A program made the position numbers and the translations under genes. 64,000 nt of DNA from Paramecium tetraurelia (lineage: Eukaryota): NCBI GenBank assembly GCA_000165425.1, contig CT868047.1:1-64000 (forward strand), read 5' to 3'. Below the pieces are notes generated by a model, which did not search any database, was not told the DNA's origin, and worked only from the letters and a program-made list of their open reading frames with translations. Of this stretch, positions 4,388 through 27,587 are shown one piece after another. Position 1 is the stretch's first letter. Each line of letters opens with the position of its first letter.

Positions 4388-5772
4388 ATGCTTTCTGATA
4401 TAGAATAAACTTAAAATAGCTGCTAAGTTTGTAAGAAATAAGACGTAGAATTATCAAGATGCTCTTCTTGCAAATAAATTTATTATTGCTCAATAGAATG
4501 TCAAAAAAAAGATTGGAAAGAACACAAATTTATTTGTTCTGAAATACAATTGAAATAACAGAGAGAAAAATAAAGAGCAGAAAGAAAAGCATAGGGAAAG
4601 AAAGCTATTGAAGATTTCGCAGATTTCGAAGTTTTGGGTCATGGAAATTTTTCAGATATCTATAAAGTTCGAGAAATTGAAACCAATTAAGTCTATGCAT
4701 TAAAATAGATAAATAAACGAAAGCTAACCTAAGTTAACAAGGAAAAAGATGTTTATATGGAAAAACATTGTTTAGGCAAGCTTACAGATAATCCGTATTG
4801 TATTAGGTTATATTCAACATTTCAGGATGACGAAAATCTGTACATGCTTATGCAGTATGTTGATGGTGGAGAATTATGGTAACAAATTCACAATTTTGGA
4901 GCCAGGGCTTTTCCACTTTGTCTATACTATATTAGTGAAATAATTAAAGGTAATTGTTAATTTGACAAAAGCAATAAATTCTATCCATAATATTGGTATT
5001 GTTCATAGAGACATAAAGAGTGAAAACATACTATTAACGTAAGATAAAAAAATAAAGTTTATTGATTTTGGAACTGCAAGAGACATGAATGATCCAACCA
5101 TTGAAGGAAGTGGAAATGGTAGAAAAGGTAAGAAATTTGAATTAATTATAAAGGAAAGCAGGCTTTTAAACATTTTGTGGGAACTCCTTAGTTTATGGCA
5201 CCTGAATGCATAAGGAATAAAGACTCGAATGAAAAATCAGATATTTATTCATTAGGTGTGTTATTTTATCATATTGTTTTTGGTAAGTATCCCTTTGATG
5301 GGAAAAGTGATTATTTGGTGTTTTAATAAGCATTGGAAACGGAACTTCAGTTCCCAGAAGGTTGGATAGACAACGAATAATTTAGAAGTCTTATTCGAAA
5401 GATGTTGTAAAAGGATTCTTAGGATAGACCAACTCTGGCTGAAATAATGCAGGATTAATTGTGGGGTGAGAATTTCGATTGGAATGCAGAGTAAGGTACA
5501 GTTATGATCTTTAGTTAGACTATTAGACTGTTTTAAATGGGTTGAAGGAGATTGATAAGTTTACTTTTGATTTTGCTTTGGAGTTGAACAATGCTGAGAA
5601 ATTGGAGGAGAAGATTTGCGTCAAGTATGAGATTAATAAGGTTTTGGGGAAGTACGAGAAACTGATAAAGGATGAAGATTATTAGAAACGATTCAATTAC
5701 ATGAAATAGATTGTAGAGTAGAATTTGTAAAATAGAAAAGATGAAGATGAGGAGCCGTAATAATTTAGATGA
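4388..5772 (+). CDS. MYND zinc finger fused to an AGC (PDK1-like) Ser/Thr protein kinase, ~437 aa
   Basis: N-terminus CQVCKKQDVELSRCSSCKQIYYCSIECQKKDWKEHKFIC (MYND consensus); kinase motifs LGHGNFSDIY, YALK, HRDIKSEN, IDFGTA, FVGTPQFMAPE; three short introns. Confidence 0.88.
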
Positions 5773-5802: not shown

Positions 5803-6646
5803 TCACTATATTCTAAATTGTTTTCTTTGATTTGAAATGGATTTGACTTTCAAATCGATTTATTAAGCTTCCTATCTAATTTAGACATAATTTCGAACAA
5901 GCTTTTCATTTTATAGATATAATTATTCCAACAATTGTAATTATTAGTCTGTGTTCCCTAATTGATAGAATTTGTGTCTCTAAACTCTGCTATTTTCGAT
6001 GATGGAAAATAATGATTATCGAAGACTATTTAATTCTTGATTTTCGCTTCTCTGATAGGTTTCGTTATTTTGAGCCTTAAACTTAGAATATCTGTTTTGA
6101 TATTGTTCAAGGTTAGATTGAAGTTTATCAACAATTTCGACCTTAATTTAATTTTAAGGGAGATTAGTACGCAATTTGATTTGTTTAGGCAAGTTCTCTT
6201 CTTCCTCAAATTATGTGGAGACAATTAATGAATTTTTGGAAACCATATTGGAGATAGATCGAGTTCGCTTATACTCAATTTACAAATACTTTTGAAGTTA
6301 ACTTGGTTTGCGGTTCCAATTTATTTTAACTTAAAGAACTTTTGCGTCTGTTTTCGGTATTGAATCTGTGATGTTTTTATTTTACGCTATTATTCGATAA
6401 CTTTTTGATTAACTCTGTTGTTTATTAATTTAGTGATGCCACATTTTTGGGAGAGTTTTTTTGATTTCTGGCACTAGGAGACCTCGATTGTTTAATTGAA
6501 GGTAATTTGAGGTGTTTGTAAATTTGGGGAGATATCAAATGATTCGATTGCAACGGAGAGATATTTGTTCGTGTATTTCTGACTTCAACTGAACGATCTA
6601 TAGATATTCGAATTCTGTTATTGTTTGAATCTTATCTCCTTTGCAT
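5803..6646 (-). CDS. Hypothetical basic, low-complexity protein
   Basis: ATG at 6646 opens MQRRQDSNNNRIRISIDRSVEVRNTRTNISPLQ... in code 6; TGA at 5803; no recognisable domain; internal exon structure not fully resolved. Confidence 0.6.
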
Positions 6647-6771
6647 TAAATATTTATTAATAAAAAATATACATTTTCCGTCAATCACTGACCAGTGATA
6701 CCTGGTGATCTCTATAAACAATATTTAGAGTCATTTGAGATTGAATGAATTAAACAAATTATTTTAATAAA

Positions 6772-9700
6772 ATGAGTCACTCTCTTAAAGAAGCTAATTA
6801 CAGTGTTAATTAAGTCGAATGTGAAATCCTATAAGAATATTTAGGATAGCCCAAGGCTTAGTCATTAATGTATCATTTCCTAATCAATCTTCTTCTAGAT
6901 AGTAATTTGCCAAGTCTTCTGAATTTAACATATTGGTCACACCTTCAGGATTAGTGGTATAATGTTGTGGGAACACAAATATCATCAAGAAATTTGGTAC
7001 TCTTCAAATGTCTAAGGGTACACATATTTGGGAAGTTATAGCAATATATGATTGTAGTTAGATGCAAGTAATCATTGATAATCATTCAAGATTGGAGTGA
7101 GTACTGTTAGTAAGCCAGGACAGGAGAAAGTTTACGTTTAGTCGTTCACAGCAAGCACAATAAGAACGATCACAGTTATTCTAAACATTGAATTGGGAGA
7201 AGTTAATTTTTATTTGAATGGAAATCATAATTAAAAAAAAACACTGCCTGTTGAAAAGAATGCCATTTACGTCCCTCTAGTATAATTTGCACCACACGGG
7301 AAAGTTGCAGCTCTGAACCCTTTTGCTTAGCATCCAAATCTTAATTATCCAAGAATTAAATGTTTGCCACTTAATTTATTTACCAAAACAAATGAGTTTA
7401 AGATGCCAAATTAGGTTTTTACAGGCAATCTCTCTAATATCGAACTAAAAGAGTTCAAACCCAACTAAATGATCAAGATTTCAAACAACTTTATCTACTT
7501 CCACAATAACAAAATGAAATTGCTGAGACCCAAATTAGGATAATCAAATATTCAAGAAACATAATTGGTTAACTTATTTAACAACAAACCTGAGACTCCA
7601 CAGTCTTTGATTTCTATTAGATTAATGAAATAGCATTACGAATTAATTTCAACAGCGTTCACCTGGAAGAAATCATTAACCAATGGATTTACAAACCAAA
7701 ATATGATAGAATAGTTCCATTACTATTGGTTATAAGCAAAACAGTTTGAATCGCAAGTGCTAATTTAAATACCATACATTTTGATGAAATAAATAGTTCT
7801 ATCTCAATTGGAGGAATATGAATAAGACTTTGGACTTATCCTAAAGTAAGATGAATAGGTGGAGAGCTGCAAAGTTCTAAAGATAGTTCGAGTATTATTA
7901 GAAATAGATGAATAATTATATGCCATGACATTAAACAACTAGGAATTTGAAAAGTTCAATTCTACTACTTCATTTAATTTGGTGCCAAGGATATTCTCCT
8001 AATTTCATAGATTACACACCTTCCTGGATTCCAATAATTATCCCTATGATATCATATCACTAACAGAACTAGGATTAATGAAGCTCCCTGGTTTCTCAAA
8101 TCTATTTAGACACTTTACCAACTACAGACATCAAATTGAACCAATAACATATCAGAATGATCTATCTAGTATTTTGCCAGCTGAAAAGATCTACAGTTAC
8201 ATTGATATTCCATTAGCTTTGACAATCAATAATATTCCATATGTAGATTTGGAGCCCAACTTGCAAATGGTAAAATCAGTCAACGATTCAATTTATTTCT
8301 CACTTATAAATGAAGAAGGAAGGATACAAGTATGGAATGGAGAATTAAGTTTACACAGATGCTTATAATTTAATCTCAGATCATTTGAAGAGAAAGTTGA
8401 AGATTAGAATTCATTGGCTCCATTGTTTGCTGAACCATAATCAGAGAATAATCCTTCATCAAATATTGAAAATCAAGATAGTCAAAGTGAGGAAGCTTAA
8501 GAAGCTATTGTTCCAAATGAAGATTTATTAGAATAACTTTACAATATGGGTTTTTCAATAGAGGCTTCAAAGCAAGCATTGATAGAAACCAAAAACAAGA
8601 TCGAGGAGGCCATTGAAAAAGTATTCACAATTGAGGAGCAAAAAGCTAAAGAGAAATAACAATCACAATAATAAGAAGTTAAATTACCTAAATTAAAACC
8701 TTATTGGACTTGCAAGGAATGTACACTACTTAATTCAAATGAAAATCTTAAGTGCTAAGCATGTGATGCCTAACCTCCCTAAGATGCATTTGAAAAGGAA
8801 ACCGCCATTGTAATCTAGGAACAGCAATTAGAATAGCAAACAGAAATTACAGAGGAAAAGATTTAAAAGATACAAGAGGATAATAATGAAAAACTTCGAA
8901 ATATTTTCAAAACCTCGAAATTATCAAATCTTATTTAAATCAGTCTATAAAAACCATTTAGACATTTACTATTTGCCCATGTGTTTACCACAGAATAATA
9001 ATCGTATTTAGTTCTTAACCGATTCTTCCAGAGTATCAAATACTTAGGTTAATTTTTTAGAACAAATAATGAGGGAAACTATTCTATACTAACGAATAAG
9101 TCATATTCATAAATAGGCAATTATTAGAACTTGTTAAAATTACTAAATGAAGGAGAGAATAGTAGATTCATATATGAAACCTTATACCCAGTTTTAACTG
9201 TAATTATGATGTTATATATTGTTAGCAATCGCAAGAAGAATTTGAATTTAAAGATCAAATCATTTTAGCAATAGATGAAACCATATCAAACCTATTTTTC
9301 CAAGACGACATGATTGTTATTTAAGGAGCCACAAAGATTTGGGAATGTGCCTTATTTGAAGGTAAATTATACAATTATCATATAAGGTGAAAACTATCAA
9401 CCAAAATTGGCAGTTGCCTAAAAGTAAGAAAAGGCAGTTATTACAAATCAATTGGAAGAGGCCATAGAAAAGGAATAGGCTGTTATTTAATAAAATGAAG
9501 TGGTTGAATCTTTTGATGATTTGACAAAATTAACACCAGAGGAGATCTCTGATTTGGCTAAATTGAATGAACATCAAGATGTCTACTTCCAACCTATTAG
9601 CAATAACCCCATGCTCTTATCATAATAGAAGGGGGATTCTTGGGCCAATATCATTGTAGACGTTGACCAATCCAGTTAGAATTAGATTGAGTTAAATTTG

Positions 9701-12700
9701 GTCAATTAATAACAAATGATGAAGCTATTTGTGACAGGATTCAGTGACAAAAAGTCTCAGTTTAAATCTGAAGGATGGGTGTCTATTGATGGATTGAAAC
9801 CTGAGAAAGATGATCAATTGCCCCTTACTATCTTTACCCACAAGGGATCTCAATTTAATGTTCAATAGTGCATATCCAAAATATGCTTTGTTTAATAAGA
9901 AATATTCTCCACTGTTTATTCAAAGCCAGAATTTATCTTCAAGCATCTACATGGGAAATTGATGAGTTTTTCTAAGTTCTAAGTTGCAAGTCCAAATAAA
10001 TTTTAAAATACAGGAGTGCCTCTAGGATCTGGTTTGATATTTATTGGAAACAACGCCAATGACTTTTTGTATTGTTAGAAGTTTTCGAATTTCAACAAGG
10101 AAAAATATCAAGAATGGTTAAAGGAAAGGCAAAAGGATATTAGACCTTTGAAGCCTTGGGAACCAGTGGCCTTTTTTGAATTGGGGGCAAATGAAGAGTA
10201 ATTGACATTTTCCTTAGAGAATCCAAAGATTGGAAAATATGTGTTATTAATGACATTATCAGCAAAATAGACAGATCAAGTGAAGTTTGAGTAAAATCCT
10301 TTGACTTTGAATTATTTCGTTGCTTATGGTACTGTGGTGAAGGAAAATATGGGAGATTAATTAGTGTAAAGCCAACAATCCCTTGAGCTATTTAGAGACA
10401 TTACATTAAAAGTAAATGGTGCTGTTTTGGATAAGGATTAATGTTAATTCAGAGAGGACACTTATGGTAATTACAATAAATATATCTGTGAAATACCGGC
10501 ATCTTTATTAGCTAATGTTCAAAACATCAAAATCGAATTCCAAAAATCAGACATTAGTTTTCTCCAAATCAGTGGGCTCAAACAAAAAGATATCAACTAG
10601 AAACTTTTACAAAAACTTCCTTAGGCTCATCTGATTACGACTCTTATGCACGATGTAACTAAATATGATGAATTTAATTAAAAGTTAATGCAACTAATAC
10701 ATAACAATAAAGCAACTCAATAATAGAGATTTAGTGCAATAAAGGTGTTGTGCAAGTTGTTCTAAAGTATTCCTTAGTTTGTAACCATATGCTATAAAGA
10801 TTTGGATATTTTAGAGTTCATCAAGTTAAACTTACTTGCATAGTAATAGGAGGAAGAATCCAGTGTCTAAACTTTCTTTTAATTATTCTTATCAATCCCT
10901 GAGTTCAATGGTCAATTAGTCAAGGCAGTAAAAGACATCATAAACAATATCTTTACATTATCTGATATTATAAAACCAGCAGGATTCATCCAATTACTTC
11001 AGATGTTGAAGAAGTATGCTTCTTAGGACTCGAAAGAATATTATCCTTACATTTTAAGTCATTTAAAGCAAATTGCAAAGTTCATTCACAAGGTTGATTC
11101 ATCCTACTTCAATAAGTTGAATCAATTTTAGATTTTCTTAATGTTGACTGAAGAATAATTGTTTTCTGATAGATATTGTAAATTAACCTAATTTGCCGAA
11201 GACACTCCATTGATTTCTCAAGTGTTAGGAGAAGTATAAAAACAGATTGAAATCAGTAACAAAGAAAAGGTAGACCCTGAGAAACCTAACAACATGATCA
11301 ATATCGACATTAATATCAAGAAACCTCTATATTCAATCATTGTGTTCTCAAGATAACCTCATTATGACGAATATGTAATTGATCTGCTATCCTAATTCGA
11401 TGTCCATCAATTCTAATTAGTGTTTAATACTCCTTAGATAAGTTGTAGAGTAGTTAGGGTGACTTTGTTTAATGGTTAGACTAATTAGCCCATTTTGGAT
11501 GTCACTCTACCAGATTGGCTCCTAGTTTAATTAACAAAATATGCTGATTAGCATTCTGCAAATATGCCAAAGAGCAAACTGAATATTATGTCATGGAATA
11601 TAAAGGCTTAACAAGTGAGAACATTGAAATTATAAATAACATATTCATTAACTGCAGCTACTAGAACAAAGGAGGAGAGTAACATAGCTCCAAAGGAATT
11701 GTGCATCATTCCTTAATTCAAGGGATAATTGAGTTAAAATTTAGAGAAGTTTGGCCAAGACAAGGATCAGATTTAGAGTCAAGTGTTGTTTACAGATGGA
11801 GATTTTGTATTCGAGAAGGAGCTAGGTTTTCCCAATTCTTTGAAATACTAGAAATACAATAATCAAGGGTCTATTTACTTGGATTCAGCGCAGGTTTTGG
11901 GACTCAAACAAAAATACGTGATATTAAAAATAAAGGAATCAAATAATTTAAATGGTCCTCATACATAAATACAGTCATAATATTATAGAGCCCTACTTGT
12001 TTAAAAGCAGAAGGAATTAAAGTAAAAGTTGCAGCAAAACCAAGGCAAAGAAAAGATCCAAGACACCATTTAAATCATTAGGAAATTGTAACTTGAATTG
12101 ATCCAAGATCCAAATTCAAATATCAATCTTAGTAAATCCCTAGATTTCTTGTATACATATGCATACGAACTAATAAAGATATTAATTCATGCAGATTCTA
12201 CTTGTCAATAATGGAGATCAGACGTGGCTTTAAGAGAACAAGAAGGATTGAAGATGGCCTAATTAATTTACAAGACCTTTGTGTAGATGAATCAAGGACC
12301 AATCACAGATCTTAGTTTTTAATTGCTTAATATAATCTTAAGCAACTTGAATCTTAAGTATTGGATTCTATTTACATTTGCTCAATATCAGAAAATTGAC
12401 TAAGATGCCAACATTCTAAATACCTTGAAAATACTTCACATCCCAATATGTTAAACTATAATGTACATTTCAATAATTCTGAGCGAAAAGCAACAGATCA
12501 AACAAGCCCAATAGTTAATAGGGTTGGTGTTAACTAAGTTGGTGGACAAGCAATTCAACAACAAGGAGTTGGTGGATCCTCAAATGCAAATTAAACCATT
12601 GGGAACTCTGAGATCAACAAGTAGTTAAGATTTAGAGATAGGATAGGTGGAGAAATTAACCGATGAATGTTTCGAATTAACAAAACCAAAAGTATTCTCA

Positions 12701-15700
12701 ACTCTATTTTGCATAATGAAATGGACATTACAAAATTAACAGCAATATCAAATCTAAGATGTACAAAACCTATTTCTTAAGACTTGCAATGTGTTGATGA
12801 AACTAAACAACGATGAACTAATTCAATTTGTGACTGAGATCACTAATCCCACAGATCCAACACAATCGGGATTGTTCTAACTATTAGCCAATGCATTATA
12901 ATCGAGTGATTCCAACACAATTCTGAATCAAATCAAACAAGTTATCGAAAAGTTATGCACTCCCCAAACATACAAATTAATATTTTATTTCTTCTAAATT
13001 GTATTGAATGCCATCGTTAAGCATGCTAATGAGAATCTTTCAATATTCCCACAGCCATTGGATAGTTCAGCTTGGTTCTAGTTTTTGTCCTTTGTTGTGG
13101 GACAACTATTGCTGCTTTCGAACATGAATCTTACACAAGGAGAGCAGAGATAAAACCAAAGGAAGAGGTCAATTAAATATCAGGCTGCTTAAACCTTTTA
13201 GGAGTTCTCAGAGAAATTTGAAGAAGGGGGATTTATTTAGATATGCAACATTGAAACACTGTCACAGATGATAAGATTCTTGATTGAGCCAAGAAAGAAT
13301 TTGGTCAACAATGAGACTTTGGAGAATTCATTGACTTATTGGGGTTTGTTGTTGAATTTGATGAGCAAAATTCCAACCTAATTGATTATGGAACACAAGA
13401 TATACGATTAATTATTGTCGATTTACTTGAGATTGGATGCCAACAAATAGGCTGTGATATAATTTAGATTTATTGAAATGACCAAGTCTATTTTAGAGCA
13501 CACTTAAAGTACAGAATTCAATAGCAATCTAATTAAACAAATCTTCTAATATTAGGGCACCACTCTCATAGATGGATTACTCAACATTGTAGCATCTTAG
13601 GAAAGGAAAATCAATGCATCCATATTTAAATTGATATTCTCAGAGACTGCTCAGTACTTATACAAGTATTGTAATGTTGGCAGACACGATGGAGTTTATA
13701 GTTGTGAGTTGTCCTTGCTTAAAAAATTATAATTTGGAAACAAATTGCTGTAATTAATGAAAAAGGCAGAGTGTCCCATTAAGGTATAGATGCTCATATA
13801 GGAGATACCTTAATACGGAGAAATCATCAACAAATACATCCACTGGTACATGCTCAACAAGTCAAATGTGCCTAATGTTACTCCTGCCACTGAGATCTTG
13901 GGAAGCATCAGTAAACAAGTGCGATAAATCTTTGATTGGCTATAGGCAGATTAACAATTGTCAACGGAATCCCTGATTCAACTGTTTAAATTCTAGAAAG
14001 AGTTTGATGTAGTTGTTTAGGAACAGATGAATCAAATGACAAATATTCTGAGTTATTCATTAATAAAACACACCCAAGAGATCTTTGAAGAGTTGAATGA
14101 ATTGTGGATGACCACTGATTAAGTTGTTAGGGAAATAGCTATAAATGGAAATGGCTTTGAATATTTGCTTGAAAAAACCCATTTGACTTCTTCGACCTTT
14201 GAGGAGAAGACTGAAGCAAGTGAGTAGCAACCACAAGAAGAGGAGTTTGCAAATAAATTGGCTATGATTGATCCTCAGAAACCCCAAGGACAATAGTAAC
14301 CATAGGTGAAGGATTGGCAAGTGAACAAAAAAGGAGTCAAGGCCAAAGTTCACGTTTTAACTCTCAAAGACGAATTGTCTGAGGATTACATACTTGAATT
14401 CTAATTGGAAAAGGCGATTGAATTGAAATAGATCAAAATTGGGTTTTAAGCATACACTCCAGAATATAATGATAGGATTCTGGGTGTTCCAGACATAGTG
14501 GTTGTTGAAGTAAAGAATAAGACTTCAGATAATCTGTGGTATCCAATTGGCATCATGACTTTAATTGAAGATGAAGCATACACCTATTATAGTGTGAAGG
14601 TGATGGCCTTGAATGTTTGGAGATTATCTGCTTAGGGTAATTTAAATCAACAAATTAAGTCATTGGGTCAATAACCAATATCATACATCAGATTCATTAT
14701 GAAAAAGCCTTAGATCACATTTTTGGAGTAGATCTCACAATTATCTTTCAAATAATACAATAACATCCAAATTGGAGTGAGTTTCATTTCCATCACAGGA
14801 TTCGATTCCACAATCAATAGGAACAAGTAAATTTAGACAATTTAGGAGAAGACTGCAAGTAGATTGTTGGGTAAGATGTGTTCTTAGAAATTCAGAAATA
14901 CTTTGTTTGATATCAGCAATAATCAGAATATTGTGTAATAAATAAAGAAGAGCTTTAAGAATATCAGTTAGGCATTGCATTCAAATGAGTCTACATTGTC
15001 GCCACTCTTTATTGGATTGACAAAGTATAATCCAGAGTTTGGAGATTGGGTATTGGAATAAATAATGGACATCACTTTGGAATGGGCACATGCGAAATTA
15101 ACAGCTGAAATAGTGTTGTAGGACAAGGATAAACAATTGGATAGATTAAAGAAATTCTTGAATTACATTTTAAATCAAATCAAATAAATCGCTTAAATTG
15201 CCAAATCATAGGATCAATTCACTCAACTCACCCTTTTGATTGAAGCCTTAACTTATGCGATACTCATCTCAAGCAAGTAAAAGAACAAGGACCCAATATT
15301 GTTAGAAGTGGAAGAGGAGGACTTCTTGAATATTCTGTAGGCAGTAGAAGTCACTAGTCAATCCTATGAGCATTGCAACATGATAATCAGGTTGTTCATC
15401 ACTCTTATTAAATTGCCTCAGCCATATGTTTTGAATATGCAATTGCAATAGACTGGCATCATTGACATGACACAATAGTTGTTGCAAAAACAGTCACTAT
15501 ATAAACTCAAATTGTTGTCCATCTTAGTACAAATTAGCAATGAAGTAGTGAGTCTCATTAAGCCTTACTTACCCAAAATCTTTGAGCAAACAATTGAATC
15601 ATTGAAGAAGACAGACAACACAACATTGTCTGATTACTTTTTCTTCTTTGACTCCTCAGCCAATGTTCTTGAACTCAAAAACTTCTATTGTGAGAATGAT

Positions 15701-18700
15701 TATCATTTACAAGTTTATGAGAACTTGAAAGTGTCCAATCCATCCAAAACCTTATTAAAATAAATTGATTAATTGACATTGGGTCATATTGTGAACTTCA
15801 TTGGCAAGATAACATTGTCAAATCCATAAGCGATTGGGCAATTGGCTTAAAAGTTGATTCAGGATATCAATCTATTGTCGCAAATCGTAGATATCAATTA
15901 TGTAGAAAATGTGCTTATACCTTTATTGAATTTCGAGGAGAAGATCGATTTCACAATTGACATTTGGGACAAGGAAAGTCAGATATTTGTTGGAGACATC
16001 AGAAAACTGAGTTCTCTTCACGTTCAAGAGGATGAAACTAATGAAGCCAGTGGATCTCACGAATTGAATGGATTCCAGGCCAAAGAATTCACTCCCCAAT
16101 ATTACGATGCTTTGCAATCAGCTATTTAGAAGGTTATCAAGACTAATTCACTCAAGAAAGGAGGAAGATGGGTTAAAGAGATGGAGTTATCATAGGGAGG
16201 TTCATACTTCCATAAGACATTGTCTACTTTGCAAAAGGGACCATTTTTGATTTTGCTATTCGGAAAGAATAACAATCAGAACGAAAATTGTATTATTGGA
16301 TTGTTCAGTACTTAGAAATGTGGAAATTTGGTTAGTGAATTTTAACATGACTATTACCCAGGAGAAGTGTATCCAATTCCAGAGAATGGAGAGCAATTTG
16401 GATTCACTTACGAAAAGGATAAGATCTATCATTTGTTGAATAATGATCGCAAAACATTTGGAGTTGGAATGGATCATGTCAATGGTGGTTCATTCTCATT
16501 TTTATTAGAAAGAATCAATTTGACATTCTCTGATGACCAGGAAGTTTCAAGCATTTCAATTGGAATTCACGACTTTGAATTATTGGAATAAAAGCCAGAA
16601 GAAGATTACTATTTTGATGATTTCTGGATGCAAAGAATGGAAATTTGGATTTACCAACAACCACAGTAGGTGTCTAAAAGCACTTAGAAACCATTGTTCA
16701 GTGGACAACAAGGCAATTAGTTGATTGAAACCAATGACACTTCTACTTTCGGCTATGGAATTCTAAGCAATCCAATTCTGTAGGATAAATACTTTGCCAA
16801 ACAATCCGTCTATAACTACTTGAGTGCTACACCAGTATATTCCATTCCAGGTAATTGCAATAACACTAACATTCTGTAATGCATTTACGTTTCCAACATG
16901 TTCTTGAATGAATAGGCAATCAAGAACTCTACCATTATTTAAATGAATGGCACTCTGATCCAATAACAAACCAAACCATTCCCAACATTTACAGTTGATG
17001 GATTAGAATTGTTAGGACAATTAAATTCCCTTACTGAAACTCCATTGTAGTATTCCTCATCGTTGAAAATATTTGAAGCCTTCTAGAATCAGGATGGAGT
17101 CAAACAAATTATCTTGGCAGTTTAGGATGCTACTAAAAAGTGGTAGAATCAAGAATTGACTTAAATCTGGAATTCTTATGTATCTGAATTGAGTGCCTTT
17201 TGTTCAGTACCACAATTCTTCAGTTACTTTTTGAAAAATAAGAAATCAATGGAGTTACTATTCTAATTACTGGCAGGAACTCCCGATCAACCTAATAGCG
17301 ATTAAAAGGCTTGGAAAGAAAAAGAGATCGATGCAGTGAAGTTCATCTATGACACCTTATCAGATGTTTTCAAGACACACAACAATCAAGAAATTCGAAT
17401 TATTGCCATCAAGGACAATTTAATATAGAAGATATTGGATAAAATTGCTATTGTCAGTAAGGAAAAGAAAAGAGTGTATCAAGCTGTTATTGCTGAGGAG
17501 CCATAACAACCACCATAATAGTAATAGCCTTAAGCACAGGGGGATAAGTCAGTTGATAGGAAACCAAAGAAGAAGCAAGGTGTTGGTTATGGAAGTGATT
17601 AGACTGGACAGAACTAAAAGTGGAATACTCAGGAATATTTAGATAAAAAGAAGGTTCGATCAGAATAATTAAAGTCTCTTTTGGAGATCATTAGAAACTT
17701 TTTCAATTATGATAATTGGCATTTAAATTAAGAATTATCATAGATAATAAATGAAATGATATTTGAAAGTGCATTGTTATCCTTATTAGAGGCTGCATTT
17801 AGATCAGGTTCATTGTTAGAAATGTCAAAAGACTTTGATCTCAATTTATGTTATCTTCAATTAACAAAAACATTAGCCAAACATAAGAACCTCACTCCAT
17901 TATTATTAAAAATACCTCCTAATTATATACCGAAACAAATCGAATCTATAGCATAATTATTAAGCAATCTTAAGAACATTGCTCACATATTCTTATCTTG
18001 TCTACAAACCAACGAGTTATCCGAGAAGGATTAGATCTCAAAACAGATTGCTACCATTATTCTTGAGACAGATACAAGTGTCCAAGAAGCTATAGAAAGA
18101 TTCTAATGTGATGAGTCAGAGAATGAATAAGAAGACGCAAAAGAACATGAATTGCAAGAGATACTGAAATTGCCATTGAATGAAGCCTACAGATTGTTGT
18201 TAAAGGACTTGAGATTCGACTATGTGTCATTCAAAGGGTAAAACCAGCAATATCTCCACTATTATGAGAAACAAATTACTCAGGCTCCTACTCCAACACC
18301 AGCAAAATTGATTCGTCTAGCCTAGGAATTCGCTGATATGTCCAATTCTCTACCTGTTGAACACACTAATTCCATATTTGTTAGAGCTGATAAGGATAGA
18401 GTGGATGTAATAAAAGCATTGATTATGGGTGCATCTGGAACCCCGTATGCTCACGGAGCTTATTTGTTTGATATCTACTTTGAAGACTAATACCCCAATA
18501 CTCCTCCCAAGATGAATCTATCTACTACTGGAAGTGGGAAGATCAGGTTTAATCCAAATTTGTATGCCTGTGGTAAGGTGTGTCTCTCACTATTGGGAAC
18601 ATGGAGAGGACATGCATCTGAGAATTGGGATCCCAAGTTGTCAACCATCTTGTAAGTGTTGGTGTCCACCTAAGCAATTATCATGTCTGAGGATGTGTAC

Positions 18701-21700
18701 TTCAATGAACCAGGGTTTGAAGGGGAAGCAGGCTAATAGGATGGCGAAATGAAGAATGAGGCCTATTCCAACATTGTTAGATACGGAAACATCCAATATG
18801 CTATGATTGAGAATATCAAGAATCCTCCCACTGGATTTGAGACTATTATAAGAAGACACTTCTATTTGAAGAAAGGAGAAATAATGGAGGAAGTCAGGAA
18901 ATGGGTTCAGTATGCTGAGCAAAGACAAGCCTTGTATATGGGATTGGTGAGCGATCACAATAGTCAATGGTGTTCAGTGTTCAAGAAGTCTAAGACTCAG
19001 TATTTGGATATGCTCAAGGATGCAACTGCTGAACTTGAAAAGGCTCTCAATAGTTTGTAATAGCCAAGCATCAAGGAGATCAGTCCAAAGTTGAATCAAA
19101 GAAGAAAGAAGAAGCAATAGGAGAATTAAGTAATTGTTCAAAAGGCCACTGATGGCATACTTAATTTAGAAGGAGTTGATGTGACCTATGATAGTAATGC
19201 TATTCAAGAGCAAGTGATAGATGTGAGTAATGAATAAGTGAGAGATAGATGGAGCAGATACATCGGAGCAATGGGAATTGAAGCTGTTAGGAAGTAAGCA
19301 AATGCAAAAGTCTTACTCTGCGGAGTGGGATCCTTGGGTGTTGAGATTGCTAAAAACGTGGTGCTTTCTGGAGTTGGAGTTTTCGCTATCTATGATAACA
19401 AAGTGGTGAATCAGGATGACTTGGTAGGGTAGTTCTTCCTTTCTTAGTCAGATGTTGGCAAACCGAGGGCTGCAGCTTGTGTTGATAAAATTCAGCAGTT
19501 AAATAATTATGTTAGAGTCAAAGTGATAGAGAAGGATGTGCAATAGTATATAACCACAGAGCAATTCGATATCGCAATATTGACAGATGTCTATGATTAC
19601 AACGAACTAGTTTGTTGGGATAATCTGTGCAGAGCCCATTCAATTAAGCTTATCATCGCCAATGCCAATTCTGTTTATGGAAGAATCATTAATGACTTTG
19701 GAGCTGAATTCAAAGTAATCGATAAGAATGGAGAAGACATTCCTGATGTATTGATTAAATCGATCTAAGCAGATGGAGTAGTTGAATTATTGGATGGTCA
19801 GAGATCTCAATTTGCAGATGGAGATTCAATTATATTACTGGAAGTCCAAGGCATGAAGGCAGGAGAACAATCAATCAACAATCAGCTTCTCAAGATCCAA
19901 ACTATTTCTACTAAGAAATTCAAGATTATCGATGACATCTCTCAATATTCTCCTTACCTTTCGAGTGGAATTGCCAGACATGTCAAACAAACTATTACAT
20001 GTACTAATAAATCCTTGGATGTTGTAATCAACAGTGATGATTGCTTAGATGCCAATTTGAAGGAGAGTGATAGCATCAAGCTTGTAGAACAGAGTCTAAT
20101 GCATTTAGCTTATAGAACACTATCATACACCAACGGAGATATTGTCAATCTCCTCGACTCTGTGATTAAATTTGATAAGGCCAATTTCATCCAGTAGAAT
20201 TCCAAACTAGCTAAGTATTTAGAATTCTATCTCAAAATGTTCCAAAAGACCTTTGCATTGCCAGCATTCCCTCCTTTAGCTGCCTACTTAGGAGGATTTG
20301 TGTCATAAGAGATAATCAAAGCACTCACTAATAAGTTTACTCCCATCAATCAAGCCTATTATTTTGATTGCATCGAAGTGTTGCCATTTGAAATCTGGGA
20401 TGAAAAAGGAGATTAATAGGCTTAGATCCAAGCAGTTGATCAACTTTAATTGACTGGAAAAGATGCATTGACTAAATTATTAGGGGAGGATGTGTATCAG
20501 AAGGTGAGAAGTACCAATTTATTCATGGTTGGATGTGGTGCTATAGGGTGTGAATTGCTAAAGAATTTTGCCATGATCAATTTAAGTATTGACGGGTAAA
20601 TTACTATAACTGATCCTGATCACATTGAAACTTCCAATCTAAATAGGTAATTCCTATTTAGAGAGAAACACATTCACAAACCTAAGTCTTAGACTGCAGC
20701 TGCAGCAGCAATTCAAATCAATCCACTACTGAAGGGCAAATTGATTGCAAGAATGGACAAGGTTCACGAACAAACCGAGAATATTTTCCATGATCAATTC
20801 TTCGAGTAATTATCCCTTGTTGCCAATGCTCTTGATAATGTCCAAGCAAGAAGATATGTCGATCGCAGATGTGTCAAGGCCAAGATTCCATTGTTAGAAT
20901 CAGGCACTCTGGGTCCCAAAGGCCATGTGTAGTGTATCATCCCATTCCAAACAGAATCATACAACAGCATGCAGGATCCAGTTGAGGAAGGAGAAATTCC
21001 TTACTGCACTTTAAAGATGTTCCCTGAGGAAACATTCCATTGCATTGAGTTTGCCAGAGACAAGTTTAATAAGCTATTCTCCTTAAAACCAAAATTGGCC
21101 TAGAACATCATAGAAAATCAATCATTCAATCCATCAAATCCAGAAGAGATCAAATAATTGAAATCTACTATCAAATTACTCCAATAGGCACCAACCAAAC
21201 TTGAAGATTGTATTCAATGGGCAAAAAATAAGTTCTCAAAGTACTTCATCAATGACATTAAATAACTACTGTACACATATCCAGTTGATGCCAAAACTAA
21301 GGATGGACAACCATTCTGGAAATTACCCAAGAGACCTCCAAGATGCTTGAATTACGACATTGAAAATCTCATCGTTGTCTAATTTATATCCACAATGGCT
21401 TTCCTTAGAGCCAAACAATACAATCTGCCCACACCTGCCGACTGGAGACATGAGAAGAACAGACGAGATGTAGCCACCTTAGGAGAGAAGATGACAAGCA
21501 AGGAGTGGATACCCAATGATTCTAAGAAGAAGGAGATCGAGGAGCAAGTGTTGAAGTTGGAGAACAAAGCCCAGAAGCAACAAGAGGAGGAATAGGAAAA
21601 TGCCATTTTTGATGACCCCAACAAGTTATTGGCACAACTGTAGGGTTTGAAATAAGCAGGGTATTTGAATATATATATTATTTTTAGAATCAAATTGTTC

Positions 21701-22327
21701 TCGTAAGAATTCGAGAAGGATTGCGACATGAATGGACACATCGACTTCATTCACTCTCTAGGAAACCTAAGAGCTTTGAATTACGGACTCGATGAAATGG
21801 ATTGGATCACAGTTAAATTGAAGGCCGGAAGAATAGTCCCAGCCTTGGCCACCACCACAGCTGTAGTATCAGGACTCTAGACGATTGAATTAGTCAAAAT
21901 CTTAAAGAGGTGCAAACTTGAGAACATGAAGAATGGATTCATCAATTTAGCTGTGCCCATGGTACAATTGACTGAGCCGATGAAGGCGGAATCCATCAAA
22001 CTTAACGAGGAAGTGAATGTCACCTTATGGGACAGATGGGATGTCAAGTTGGGAAAAGAAATTACCTTGCAGATTTTGTTCTAGCACTTGAAACAAACAT
22101 ATCATTTGGAACCGGCTAATGTTTTCAAGCAATCTTCAGTCGTTTATATGCATGACCTTCATAAGGGTTCAGCCATATTCACCTAGCCTATTATCGAATT
22201 GCTGGATGTCAAGGTACGCTATTAGTATTATGATTAGAATGATTATGTGGATTTAGTAATTAATTTTGTTAAAGACGAGCAGATCCTTAAGAATGTCCCA
22301 GAAGTTAGAGTCTACTTTAACGAATGA
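6772..22327 (+). CDS. Giant (~5,130 aa) ubiquitin-system protein: SPRY - UBA - NZF/RanBP2 zinc finger - BIRC6-like body - BIRC6/BRUCE-type E2 (UBC) - complete E1 ubiquitin-activating enzyme (UBA6/UBA1 family)
   Basis: Six introns (6870-6898, 7068-7090, 9200-9225, 9362-9386, 21661-21687, 22214-22237) restore one frame. ORF-track fragments at 8078, 15479, 15854, 16367, 17756, 18749, 19580, 19790 and 21395 all share that frame. [23 protein letters not shown] (Cys 18581-18583). E1: [54 protein letters not shown] (Cys 21005-21007), [27 protein letters not shown]-terminal UFD. Not every codon of the 12-kb exon was checked. Confidence 0.92.
6960..7325 (+). other. SPRY-like domain at N-terminus of the giant protein
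   Basis: Spliced translation [22 protein letters not shown]...[20 protein letters not shown]...IYVPLVQF follows the SPRY pattern (G-x-H-Y/I-W-E-V, IGV, I-G/T-V-x-L-D/N, FY-x-NG, Y-P). Confidence 0.6.
8515..8775 (+). other. Tandem ubiquitin-binding modules: UBA domain and NZF/RanBP2-type zinc finger
   Basis: [33 protein letters not shown] (UBA MGF motif), then [22 protein letters not shown] (W-x-C-x2-C-T-x2-N-x6-C-x2-C). Confidence 0.85.
18300..18840 (+). other. BIRC6/BRUCE-family UBC (E2) domain within the giant gene
   Basis: [56 protein letters not shown]...[36 protein letters not shown]...STILQVLVSTQAIIM...[11 protein letters not shown] replaces HPN, as in the BIRC6/UBE2O/UBE2Z group. Confidence 0.93.
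19240..22324 (+). other. Full-length E1 ubiquitin-activating enzyme module (IAD-FCCH-AAD-SCCH-UFD) within the giant gene
   Basis: Inactive adenylation domain ([22 protein letters not shown]), active adenylation domain GxGxxG at ~20531, catalytic PYCTLK, and UFD ([10 protein letters not shown]...VPEVRVYF). Confidence 0.95.
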
Positions 22328-22433
22328 TATCTATTATATGTATAAATTATAAAATTCATCTATGCATTTTCTAACTTATATAATATGTTACAATCCTACG
22401 TTTATTAGCATAGAAATATATAATTAAAATTTA

Positions 22434-23740
22434 ATGGGTAATTGCTGCGGATAATCCTCAATCATGGAGTGTCACTAGCAATAAATTGTCACCAAGGATC
22501 TCTTAGGTGAAGAGTATGCAAACAAGGCTGCATTAACGATTCAATGTAAGTCACCCTTTTTATCGCTCAAGCCTATGTTCGAGGATATTTGATTAGGAAA
22601 AAGCATAGAAATCACAAAAATAATAGTGTGGCCATCACAGCGACCAATGAATATAGTTACTCAAACAAACAAAGCAGATAAGAAATTTAGTTGGTCGATT
22701 TAAAAGGGCTCAACTCTATCTCCAAAGAAACTAACATACCTCAAAATCTCAAAACTATCGAAAAGGTACCAGAAACGCTTGACAATTAAACAAAATCAGT
22801 ACATTTATTCTTTAAATTTGATTCCCTTTTTTAGTTGAGGCAAGGCCTACCCAAATTTATTTATGAGGAGTCCCAATTAGAACCAGGCTTGATAACAAGA
22901 GGACCCGTGCAGGATGAACTTGATCATATATATATAGGTTAATGGAAGGATAAGTATAACCCTTGGCTATTTTAGTGCAAAATGGGGTCGAGGAATCTAA
23001 TATTGGTCGGATGGCTCCTACTATGAGGGATACTGGAGGGATAATAAATAAAATGGAAAGGGAAGACTCATCCATGTGGAAGGAGACGTTTACGAAGGCG
23101 ATTGGTTAGATGACAAAGCCCACGGCCAAGTAAATATATTCCACAAACCATTATAGGGGAAATTGACCACTTCCAACGGAGGATATTATGTTGGCGGCTG
23201 GATTAACGACAAATAAAATGGTTAAGGCAAGGAACTATGGCCAGATGGAGCAAGTTTTGAAGGACATTATGTTGACGGCATGAAATTTGGTTAAGGCATA
23301 TACACTGTTGCCAATGGTTCTCAATATGTGGGAGAGTTTGCAGATAATTGCTTCTGTGGTTTTGGAACTTACAAATGTTCGGATGGAACTAAATACATAG
23401 GGTATTGGAAGTAAAATAAAATGAATGGATAAGGAGTAAAATATTTAAACTACTTTTAGGAGTTTCATTGGAATGATGGTTCAAAATATATTGGAGAATT
23501 CCTAAACGATTTAAGAGATGGATTTGGCACATTTTATTATGGCGATGGAAGAGTATTTGTTTGTTAATAGCATATTAGATTTATAAAGGGTAATGGAAAA
23601 TTGGAAAAAGACATGGCAATGGAACTTATATTGGGAGAAACAAAGTGGAAAAATAAGGCAAATGGTAGAATGGAATTTTTGTAGTCTGGGAAAAATAATT
23701 TACAAACTCCTCCGTTGGTGACGATGCTCTATTTCATTGA
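22434..23740 (+). CDS. MORN-repeat protein with N-terminal acylation motif and IQ motif
   Basis: Starts MGNCCG (myristoylation/palmitoylation-type), IQ-like [15 protein letters not shown], then many Y-x-G-x-W-x3-K-x-x-G-x-G repeats (e.g. [27 protein letters not shown]); several short introns. Confidence 0.88.
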
Positions 23741-23898
23741 ATTAATTTTTATAAACTTTGTAATATTATAAACCAAATTCTTGTTTTAATTAATGTTTTT
23801 CTAAATTAAAATTTTGGATTAGTTTACTGGATACAAATATTAACTTATAGAAGACAAGATTGATTAATTACATAGCCCATACAGTTATCATAAATTTA

Positions 23899-26598
23899 TC
23901 ATGCAAAGCTTTTATAATTGTTAAAGGTATACGATGACATCATTTTTAATGCTTCTTTTGTTTTTTACTTTTATTGAAGCTATTTATTTAACAAGGCTAA
24001 TCTAGCAATCTCATTTTCTATGTTTAATGTTTCTGTTTAATTGAAGTCAAATAAGTCTTCAAATATAATCATATTTTGTATCAACTTTGATGATTAGTTA
24101 ATTGCTATTGTTTGAATCTCAACACTCTGATCCACTTTAACCTGCTGCCTTAAAACGAAGGCTATATTTTAAAAGCATTTTAAAGTATCTACATCATTTT
24201 TATCAGTATTTTCACATAAGCTTAACATTTTGCAATTTAATAAATTGATAAGACTTTAGGGATGACGGTAAGTTAAAATTGTCTCCCATTCTAATTTGTT
24301 CAAAATAAATAAAATTTCAGTATTTGTTTCAGATTGTAAATACTATTGGATGATAAAATAGATCTGAGGTGTATATTGTCCCTTCATAAATATCAAATAT
24401 AGCATTTTTACAACTCTCTTTATCATATATATTCTACATTACGAGGATTGTATTTTATTTACCACTTTTAAGATATGCTAAATGGTGCTTTAATACTTTG
24501 TGCTTTGAACAAGGTATATTTCGCAACTCAACTATTGAAATAATACTTATAGAAGATAAAGACCATTCTCTTAATCAACAGATTGCATAGCTTTGTTGAT
24601 TAAAGATAAAGCCTTTTGAAATTTCTATTACTTTAGGCAGTAAATCGAATAATGATAATAAATCTCCCAATCTTAAAAAAGATTCCTTTATTTATAATAT
24701 TCGATGGTTGTTTCAAAAAACTCCTCTACTTAGATCTTATCTTCAGATGTTAGAGAATAATTAATGGTTTGAATTAAATTTATTAATATTTGTCTGATCC
24801 CATATTTATCTGCTCCTCTTTCCTCTAATTATTTTATAATTTCTTTAGGATTAGCTGAGCTAATCCCGAAATGAAATAGTCTTTTTTAAAACTCTAATTC
24901 TAAACTCAGGAACTCTTTAGATTAAATGTGGTTATTATCTAGAGTATAATTATATTGCAAAAAGATCCAAGTAAAATTATAAGAAATTCTTAGAAGAAGT
25001 AAGGTAATTTAATGCTGGAAAGCTTTGTCTAAGATTTTTGAAATTTCACTTACCGTTTCAAGCCAACTTTTATCTAAGTAGCTTCTATACAATTCTAATC
25101 TCAAATATGATATGTCATCCACCATATATTACTCATCAGTTAATTCTGTTACAATTTGACGAGCCTCTTCTAATTGATTTAATTCAATTAAACAATCAAT
25201 TTCAGATAACCTATAACTTATCTAATAATCTTAAGAGTACTTTTGTATTTCTAAACTAGCATTATATAATTATTGAACATTCCCTAATCGAATGTAATAC
25301 ATCTAAATCAAATTATATTACCATTGTTTGGTGTTGGAGTTAATCTCGAGTAATTATTTATCTTCTACCTACCGAAATTCAACTTATTACAAAACATCAT
25401 ATTTTTGTAAAATTTGATTGACCTTTTCCATTGACTTTGTTTTATACAATTAAGCTAAACTAGGTACATTCTCATATGTATTCAATTGATACCTTTACCA
25501 AATTTCAGCGTCAGAAAACCTAAGTATCTTCTATTGTTTGATAATTAATTCAATAATATAGTCCGGATTTGCACGGTTATCCTCATATTGACGTTTTAAT
25601 CGTTCTGATTATTGTTATTAAAACTATTATTATAATGGAACTTTATTCAATCCAATAAGTACATTTAATTTAATGTAATTGTAACTCTTACCATGAATTT
25701 GAAATTCAAAAGGTAATTTTGTTAAAAGGCTCTCATTATCCAACATTTACTATAACTGTAAAATTGATAACCCCTTTTTGTATATCTATAACATTGAGAG
25801 CAAGAAGGCGTATATATCATTATCGAAAAGATTTTGTTCGCACTCAATTTATGAAAAATTATTTTTTAATAAACCTCTTAAATTTGGTGGCAAGTACTAC
25901 TTAGTACCTTAAATTAATTGCTTTTCTTTTTATTTTTTATAAAATATTGCACAACCGAAGTCAGCAATCACCCACCCCTTTTAATCAGTATACATTATGT
26001 TTGATAATTTAATATCTCGATGAGCTATTCTTAAGGAATGCATTTCCAATATTTATTATAAGATTGAATGATAAATGCTTAGAAATTCATTATATTCAAT
26101 ATCAGCATTGGAAACATATTCTGATAATGTTGCAGATGCAAGTTCCATTCCTGCATAAGTAGTAAAATAATTTACGCATTCTTATATTATATATACTCTA
26201 TCAGATAGTGCTAAAGAGCTATTAGGAAATTTCTTGTTCAATAATGTCTAAATCTTGTATTCATTCACTTGCTGTAGAATCTCCTCAGTTTAGCATCTTT
26301 AATGCACTTTTACAGCACATAAATATTTTGAAATCATATGCCAGCATATGAAAACAGTTCCAAAGCTCCCAGCACCTATTATTGGTTGATTTTCATTTAA
26401 ATAAGTTTAATTCATTTTTTATGATATATCATATGGTACCTCTTGGGCTATAACAAAAATATCAGGATTTTCAGAAACTAATTTCAATACTACTCTTTGA
26501 TCGAAAGAATAATTCCTTTCTATGTTATTTGCCAAATTTAAATAACCTCTGGTCTCATCTGATCCTGAAGATGAAATAGACATTGATTCTTAATTCAT
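23899..26598 (-). CDS. Divergent Ser/Thr protein kinase with long C-terminal extension, ~900 aa
   Basis: IGAGSFGTVF, CAVK, AHRDIKLSNIM, IADFGCA, GTKQYLPP; ATG-to-TGA span is 2700 nt, consistent with one frame. Confidence 0.8.
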
Positions 26599-27587
26599 TA
26601 AATAAAATATCTTGAATTAATTAAATTAATGTGATTACAGGTTTTATTGAATACTATTATATGAATTAAAAGATTACAAATGAAATATTATAAGCAATAA
26701 AATTCTTACTAATTTGAGGAGATAACCTTTTAGAATATTATTATATCAATTAAATATTTACAATAATTTTCATTTATAAATAATTATTTATGAGAATTTT
26801 AAAAACTGAAATTGGTTAATTTGGACAAGCTAGAAATAAAATCTATTAATTAGTAAAAAAGGAATCATATTAGCTATTTCATTTAAAAGTATTGATTATC
26901 GTGAATAAATGAATTCTTTGAACCATAATAAATATACAATATCTATATTTTTAACTTATTAGTTAATATCTTTGTAAAAATAACTAATATTTTGACTCAA
27001 AATTTCATAATTCTTTATTCTTGCTTTATTGCAATATAACAAAGAATTTAATAGTTATTGTAGTGTAATTCCATGATAATAAATACAATATTAACTGAAA
27101 TTTATAGAAAAATGCATTCCTTTGCTACTATCCTTTTCATCTTTTTTTGAATTAATATTAATACTTAATATGTTATTTTTTCAACACTTAACCAAATTAT
27201 AAGATATTCATAATCCAATTTAGTGATTAGATAAAGTGCTTACATCCTTATGGCTATTGATTTAATCTTTCTATTAAGAACCTCTAATTATATTGCTACT
27301 CAAGATATGAAATAAATTTTATTTATATATAACTAAGCAATCATCCATAAAGTGAACTAAAATACTAACATGAAATATGAAGTTCACTAAATACAGTTTG
27401 TATTGATTATATTGATCAGGTTAAACGCACTAATAGAAAAAAGAGAGTTATTAAAATCAGTGATTATAAATCTACTTGATATTGATAAAATTATTTCTTA
27501 TCTTATGAATGTTGATTGAATCCAATCCTGCAGATGTGTAAAAAAAATAATGATATCTAATTAATAGATTAATTCTTGAATAACTAA

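Follow-up and report, generated by a model that had tools for sequence, protein, structure and literature searches.

In the textbook view of the eukaryotic ubiquitin system, the ubiquitin-activating enzyme (E1) and the ubiquitin-conjugating enzyme (E2) are separate proteins. One of the activating enzymes, UBA6, charges the E2s BIRC6 and UBE2Z and also activates FAT10 in vertebrates, and it is only since 2019 that the exclusive UBA6-BIRC6 axis has been known in human cells. Here, a gene is described in which an E2 of the BIRC6 type and a complete E1 are encoded in one reading frame. The gene is located at 6772..22327 on the plus strand of a stretch of 64,000 nucleotides (nt) of Paramecium tetraurelia DNA (assembly GCA_000165425.1, contig CT868047.1, positions 1 to 64,000 of the forward strand; hereafter the window), which comes from the macronucleus of an aurelia-group Paramecium. 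With a probability of about 0.8, its product is a single polypeptide in which a BIRC6-type E2 is tethered to a catalytically complete UBA6-family E1 and would be charged by it.

According to those passages of PMC12999496 that deal with the human pair, BIRC6 is a UBA6-exclusive E2 that binds the ubiquitin-fold domain (UFD) of UBA6 with very high affinity, has priority over other E2s and leaves by a "thioester switch" once it is charged; UBE2Z is described there as likewise UBA6-specific. The survey in these passages covers metazoans only, and they mention no fusion. The Paramecium protein resembles the human pair in its UBC domain, in the approximately 350 homologous residues preceding that domain, and in an E1 module assigned to the UBA6 family. 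Human BIRC6 and UBA6, however, are two polypeptides from two genes, whereas in the ciliate protein a single chain carries first the UBC and then, after a linker of about 50–67 residues, the E1. Moreover, unlike human BIRC6, the ciliate protein has no detected BIR domain, and its N-terminal part contains, instead, a UBA domain and a weak finger of the RanBP2 type. As UBA6 is the only E1 that charges human BIRC6, the ciliate fusion would mirror the human pairing.

Activating and conjugating domains are also found on one polypeptide in bacterial Cap2 (CBASS) and in the Bil/Bub-type fusions. These proteins are small, have a minimal ThiF/MoeB-like E1, and conjugate cGAS-like enzymes or bacterial ubiquitin-like proteins in phage defence. 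Compared by their description in the literature, they appear to be independent of the ciliate fusion, because the latter combines a full eukaryotic E1 (FCCH, SCCH and UFD) with a BIRC6-type UBC. The full-text literature search returned E1-E2 fusions from bacteria only (Cap2 and Bil-type) and none from eukaryotes, the two likeliest comparative-genomic sources lying outside its coverage. The same search found no article linking BIRC6 to ciliates, and ciliates, Tetrahymena and Paramecium are absent from the main text of Grau-Bove 2015, its supplements being outside the scope.

The E2 part was identified by a BIRC6-homologous block (17183..18928, plus strand), which consists of a pre-UBC helical region and an extended UBC and matched human BIRC6 (PDB 8atm_A, residues 4165–4780) by phmmer in one continuous alignment (256 bits over 575 residues, E 5e-75). 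The alignment takes in RLAQE, the E1-binding helix alpha-1, and the active site FNPNLY..GKVCLS. The BIRC6 UBC crystal construct 3ceg scored 233 bits. UBE2O and UBE2Z, which belong to the same extended-UBC subgroup, were the next-best PDB matches but reached only 136 and 99 bits, and to our knowledge neither is fused to an E1. The preliminary description of this DNA, made from the sequence alone, had noted a likeness to BIRC6 in the pre-UBC region, and the alignment bore this out, with KKQGVGYGS aligned to AKGTGFGTGS and the second motif to SCLIPAMSSYLRNDSVLDMAR. The UBC core (Pfam UQ_con, 69.5 bits) extends over 18314..18739, and the codon of its catalytic cysteine, TGT, lies at 18581..18583 (residue 3903 of the spliced protein).

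The E1 part, at 19241..22324, is a complete canonical ubiquitin-type E1 (IAD, FCCH, AAD, SCCH and UFD) according to Pfam and to phmmer against the PDB, and two in-frame introns lie inside it. Under genetic code 6, the Pfam domains of the open reading frame were found in the order predicted by the preliminary description: UQ_con, two ThiF matches (248.7 bits), E1_FCCH (19769..19987, 58.5 bits), UBA_E1_SCCH (21023..21817, 219.8 bits, containing the intron 21661–21687) and E1_UFD (22028..22279, 27.2 bits with a cut-off of 25, containing the intron 22214–22237). The last of these is the E2-recruiting domain. The ATP-binding loop VGCGAIGCE of the active adenylation domain was placed by alignment at 20528..20554, and the codon of the E1 catalytic cysteine, within IPxCTLKMFP, at 21005..21007 (residue 4711 of the spliced protein). 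Both cysteine codons were thus found exactly where that description had put them, and its claim of an in-frame UBC-linker-E1 arrangement agrees with the domains lying in one frame, with the RNA contigs across the junction and with 72 of 75 homologues, as detailed below.

Conservation was analyzed in an alignment of the window protein with 72 fused homologues (73 rows). The Gly and Ala positions of the ATP loop and its Cys were each retained in 71/73 rows and the final Glu in 70/73, two of the rows lacking them being truncated. The Mg-binding Asp was likewise present in 71/73 and the E1 catalytic Cys in 71/73, where the two gaps correspond to the truncated proteins P0049 and P0053. On the E2 side, the NPN motif of the UBC was found in all 73 rows and the UBC Cys in 72, the remaining one being a gap. 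The retention of these catalytic residues suggests that purifying selection acts on both activities. A complex prediction between the UBC (residues 3840–4075 of P0002, the P. octaurelia homologue) and its AAD, SCCH and UFD (4530–5132) returned no answer (score 0.00); run without controls, it is evidence neither way.

The extent of the gene was determined from contigs of four public sequencing runs (X1, X5, X7 and X11) aligned to positions 6000–23500 of the window. None of the runs is registered as RNA; the contigs, however, lack six short introns and were therefore taken to be spliced and RNA-derived. X1 and X5, from different studies, each yielded one spliced contig (15453 and 15455 nt) spanning 6756–22362 and 6758–22366, respectively, and the 3' contigs of X7 (14427–22282) and X11 (13030–22372) likewise crossed the UBC-E1 junction. 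Based on these contigs, the gene consists of seven exons (6772–6869, 6899–7067, 7091–9199, 9226–9361, 9387–21660, 21688–22213 and 22238–22327) separated by six GT..AG introns of 29, 23, 26, 25, 27 and 24 nt, and the joined coding sequence of 15402 nt encodes 5133 residues and has one stop, the TGA at 22325–22327. The homologous P. octaurelia protein P0002 is identical to the window protein at 5027 of the 5133 positions. The preliminary description had confined the fusion to 17560..22327, which proved to be the C-terminal 1,600 residues of a gene that begins at 6772; the full extent, the two in-frame introns and the existence of a multi-gene ciliate family are additions to it. The introns 21661–21687 (27 nt) and 22214–22237 (24 nt) are multiples of three and free of TGA, so that 17 spurious residues enter the E1 of the stop-to-stop open reading frame, nine in the SCCH/AAD region and eight in the UFD.

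The same contigs bear on the possibility that two adjacent genes have been misread as one, TAA and TAG being sense codons and the spacer being free of TGA by luck. The interval 18800–19300, for which an RNA check had been proposed, was bridged without a gap by a contig in all four runs; no contig started or ended between 14427 and 22282, and hence none ended within 18900–19250. Spliced contigs obtained in two studies run the full length of the gene and end at its limits, coverage ceasing a few dozen bases past the TGA, and the upstream neighbour is represented by separate contigs (6061–6630). The whole gene is therefore expressed as one mRNA. In the genomic sequence, the plus-strand frame 9314–22327 is open over 4337 codons under code 6, and the longest other TGA-free plus-strand frame in the window (744 codons) is part of the same gene. 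Chance openness of the frame was rejected, given that the coding frame of exon 5 (9387–21660) is free of TGA over 4090 codons, whereas the two alternative frames contain 135 and 168. The tandem TAA TAG at 19058–19063 was likewise rejected as a true stop, as the coding sequence uses 154 TAA and 103 TAG as sense codons (257 in total) and its sole TGA is the terminal one.

In the linker itself (19040..19240, residues 4056–4122), no TGA was found in the 67 codons in frame and four in each of the other frames. A TGA-free spacer of this length is not rare by itself, which leaves some room for the two-gene explanation, and the same can be said of P0074 and P0079, which were called as two proteins and whose longest contigs are both of 24801. 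The G+C content of the linker (0.353), however, is that of the coding exon (0.345) and not that of the upstream intergenic DNA (0.241), and its motifs are recognisable across 20 aligned homologues. A homologue search with residues 2990–3700 of the query among target proteins of 2385–7590 residues gave 75 matches, of which 72 contain both UQ_con and ThiF in the precomputed Pfam annotation. In all 72, local phmmer placed the E1 after the UBC in the same frame with a spacer of 36–73 residues (median 50). The three matches lacking an E1 were P0074, P0075 (amoebozoan, named BIRC6) and P0076 (labyrinthulid, named UBE2Z). P0074, which stops at the UBC, is probably a split gene call, because its longest contig equals that of the E1-only P0079. 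Open reading frames from transcriptomes flagged as complete (P0008 and P0018) are also fused, and fused proteins of 5.4–6.0 thousand residues occupy entire contigs of 16–18 kb. Taken together, two misread neighbours are an explanation to which hardly any credence can be given.

The linker comprises the end of the UBC C-terminal helix, a stretch rich in Lys, Gln and Glu, and a conserved [IV]D[VM]xYD motif before the E1 start. Its five stop-like codons (at 19058, 19061, 19118, 19127 and 19235) are TAA or TAG only, as had been stated before. The linker is identical at 62/67 positions to that of P0002 and at 54/67 to that of P0003 (P. sonneborni), with one codon-sized indel. The acidic [IV]D[VM]xYD motif (19190–19240) is situated about 15 residues ahead of the E1 start and could be a docking or autoinhibitory element. 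Free E1s carry a YSRQ-type motif at their start, and the fused family begins differently.

A polyprotein, in which one chain is cut within the basic linker to release a free UBA6-type E1 and a BIRC6-like E2/E3, was considered on the basis of the Lys/Arg-rich low-complexity stretch of the linker (QRRKKKQQ). It would also suit the observation that no stand-alone UBA6-type E1 bearing a ciliate name occurs among the nameable matches, and a ciliate would need a source of free UBA6 if other E2s rely on it. The basic stretch, however, varies among homologues and contains no conserved cleavage motif, and we know of no E1 or E2 enzyme that is made by co-translation followed by cleavage. The polyprotein is thus regarded as improbable, and a single tethered chain is preferred.

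The distribution of the fusion was examined in the same set of giant homologues. The named members are from Paramecium octaurelia, P. sonneborni, P. tetraurelia and P. pentaurelia, from Tetrahymena utriculariae, T. malaccensis and T. thermophila, and from Ichthyophthirius, Pseudocohnilembus and Moneuplotes, so that the same fusion, for which a search in other ciliates had been proposed, does occur there. Every fused homologue that bears an organism name is a ciliate, most of the matches carrying none. The Paramecium proteins fall into three or more size classes (about 5130, about 4620 and 2120–2600 residues), and there are forms of 7545, 6330 and about 2690 residues in Tetrahymena; the several classes in both genera indicate a gene family rather than a single gene. 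A short UBC-E1 fusion was also found, namely the P0200 cluster with 61 members of 1968–1974 residues, each filling a contig of about 6.2 kb in metagenomes from ENA and JGI. The fusion therefore exists also without the giant scaffold, and the P0200 contigs look like a gene-sized chromosome of a ciliate. The fused proteins are already present in public databases, labelled "E1" or "UBC core domain-containing". The suspicion that databases would give merely the E1 label is confirmed by the T. thermophila member of 7545 residues, which is named "ubiquitin-activating enzyme E1", and the current annotation hides the fusion architecture.

Subsequently, the family of the E1 module was considered. The fused E1 could be a ciliate-specific duplicate of the general UBA1, the match to the BIRC6-UBA6 pair being coincidental. 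In a phmmer search of the PDB, the E1 of the window scored almost equally with yeast Uba1 (559.3 bits) and human UBA6 (557.2), followed by human UBA1 (526). The PDB alignments that extend through the UFD were those to UBA6 only, those to UBA1 ending before it, and among 192 database E1s the alignments of named UBA6 proteins reached about query position 1009, while those of UBA1 types reached about 950–966. With the slower-evolving fused homologue P0008, human UBA6 (701 bits) was preferred over fly UBA1 (637), human UBA1 (627, that is, 74 bits less) and yeast Uba1 (619).

In a first tree of 75 rows, the 31 fused E1s were monophyletic with a support of 100 and fell outside both UBA1 and UBA6. 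Further rows were obtained by a search among representatives of 1.84 billion proteins, in which the longest match listed had 2123 residues, so that full-length fused forms were out of its reach. The second tree contained 119 of the 146 new representatives (930–1200 residues) together with the first set minus 15 unnamed rows, 17 of the 31 fused sequences being kept. In this tree (FastTree, 165 rows), a split with a support of 100 separated the 17 fused E1s, nine named UBA6 proteins and 23 others from 13 named UBA1 proteins and 103 others. Names were checked for ten rows on each side: the UBA6 side includes Anaeramoeba (itself named UBA6), Dictyostelium, Pyxidicula, Mantamonas and Helobdella, and the UBA1 side includes the ciliate Fabrea salina, two fungi or microsporidia and a conifer. 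An IQ-TREE analysis (LG+C20+F+G4 PMSF, quick search) of 44 rows hand-chosen from the 165-row tree grouped eight fused E1s with 14 UBA6-side rows (SH-aLRT 99). The fused clade had a support of 100 in this analysis, and its sister was the stand-alone E1 P0233 (support 96), a JGI metagenome protein of 1063 residues that may represent the unfused state in a ciliate relative. When the fused E1s were forced to group with the four-row stand-alone clade containing Fabrea, an approximately unbiased (AU) test gave a cost of 93.4 log-likelihood units and a p-AU of 0.0028.

Several of these observations weigh against placing the E1 in the UBA6 family and are in part what a UBA1 duplicate would explain: the tie between Uba1 and UBA6 for the window's own E1, and the position of the fused clade outside UBA6 in the 75-row tree. 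Fast-evolving ciliate sequences are prone to long-branch artefacts, the trees are unrooted and come from "fasttree" or "quick" searches with many rows of deviant composition, the group used in the AU test was defined after inspection of the tree, and the label of a ciliate UBA1 clade depends on one named member. The broader trees nevertheless join the fused E1s to the UBA6 side with supports of 100 and 99, the AU test rejects their union with the Fabrea-containing clade, and both the scores of P0008 and the alignments through the UFD favour UBA6. A UBA1 duplicate is accordingly judged unlikely, and the fused E1 is very probably a UBA6-family enzyme, as far as sequence comparison can tell.

According to a passage in a review (PMC11354881) that cites Burroughs et al., UBA6 arose in the ancestor shared by fungi and animals. 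Stand-alone E1s on the UBA6 side were found here in Anaeramoeba, Dictyostelium, Pyxidicula and Mantamonas (P0268, P0204, P0205 and P0203) and in Balamuthia (P0133), and the present trees suggest that UBA6 is much older than that ancestor. Two further architectures were observed among the E1s: P0214 (1328 residues) consists of a CBS domain and an E1, and P0209 (1185 residues), which lies beside Dictyostelium on the UBA6 side, consists of an E1 and a Frag1/DRAM/Sfk1 membrane domain. Either real fusions or merged gene calls could account for them.

Based on the anatomy of the protein, the following mechanism is proposed. The E1 module would adenylate ubiquitin and then bind it as a thioester (E1~Ub) at Cys4711. 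The tethered UBC would be docked by the UFD via the conserved helix alpha-1, and ubiquitin would move from Cys4711 to Cys3903 of the UBC, in the same chain or from one chain of an oligomer to another. Substrates may be picked by the giant N-terminal region, with its UBA domain and zinc finger, in the manner of the BIRC6 E2/E3 hybrid. Ciliates would in this way have made the exclusive BIRC6-UBA6 partnership of the human type permanent through gene fusion. By our estimate, a flexible tether of 50–67 residues is in principle long enough to span an E1, and transfer between oligomer chains is equally possible. Ubiquitin as the modifier, self-charging, and transfer in cis or in trans are predictions from the domain content. 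The protein may be a self-contained activation and conjugation unit insulated from the general E1, a reading made more likely by the assignment of the E1 module to the family of UBA6, the sole charger of human BIRC6.

Against a self-charging BIRC6-UBA6 chain, the following points also have to be counted. The full-length protein, thioester formation and the transfer from E1 to E2 are deduced from anatomy. An additional internal transcription start, producing an mRNA of the E1 only, is possible because contigs do not reveal transcript ends, and the protein may be cleaved within the basic linker. Furthermore, the likeness to BIRC6 is demonstrable only for the C-terminal 600 residues before the linker, as no BIR domain was found: Pfam gave no match to it in the open reading frame of 4337 residues (E<=0.01) or in exon 3 (E<=0.001), exons 1, 2 and 4 (about 134 residues) being outside the scan. 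No match to the rest of the BIRC6 scaffold, which includes N-terminal armadillo and beta-propeller modules, was obtained by phmmer upstream of residue 2624 of the open reading frame, that is, in the N-terminal approximately 3,400 residues. In terms of sequence, the protein is BIRC6-like at its catalytic end and is not proven to be a full BIRC6 orthologue.

If the assignment of both modules is correct, the two proteins that a eukaryotic lineage has joined are exactly those recently shown by human biochemistry to form an exclusive pair of very high affinity, and the fusion would be independent evolutionary evidence for an ancient and functionally central BIRC6-UBA6 pairing. The origin of UBA6 would also shift well below the animal-fungal ancestor. 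The UBC-linker-E1 part (~1,330 residues) offers a compact natural construct for the study of E1-to-E2 transfer and of the proposed "thioester switch". Paramecium and Tetrahymena each have three or more types of paralogue, which suggests several private ubiquitylation channels. A more far-reaching proposal is made tentatively and at somewhat less than even odds: ciliates would have no free UBA6, every UBA6-type E1 being hard-wired to a BIRC6-type E2/E3, these proteins would be self-sufficient E1-E2-E3 ligases needing only ubiquitin and ATP, and the fusion would serve as a natural "Rosetta stone" for a UBA6-BIRC6 axis already in place before ciliates parted from animals and amoebae, UBA6 being far older than the cited origin in fungi plus animals.

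The N-terminal region contains two further features. A UBA-like ubiquitin-binding domain was found at 8516..8617 on the plus strand (Pfam UBA_7, E 2.1e-8, residues 476–509 of the exon-3 translation), followed at 8702..8773 by a weak RanBP2-type zinc finger, which scored 20.5 bits on Zn_ribbon_RanBP, below the cut-off of 27 bits; the paralogue P0007 reached 26.6 bits on the same model. The beginning of the protein (6772–7200, exons 1–3; GTHLWEI...IGVSTV...FYLNG) is kept in 20 aligned homologues with the consensus GxHxWExICP. This region looks SPRY-like; Pfam gave no SPRY match on exon 3 alone. In the amoebozoan P0075, named BIRC6, Pfam detected SPRY and UQ_con only. Downstream of the gene, a MORN-repeat protein is encoded at 22893–24044 (plus strand) and a protein kinase with a possible TPR region at 23899–26745 (minus strand), neither of which has an evident tie to the ubiquitin gene.

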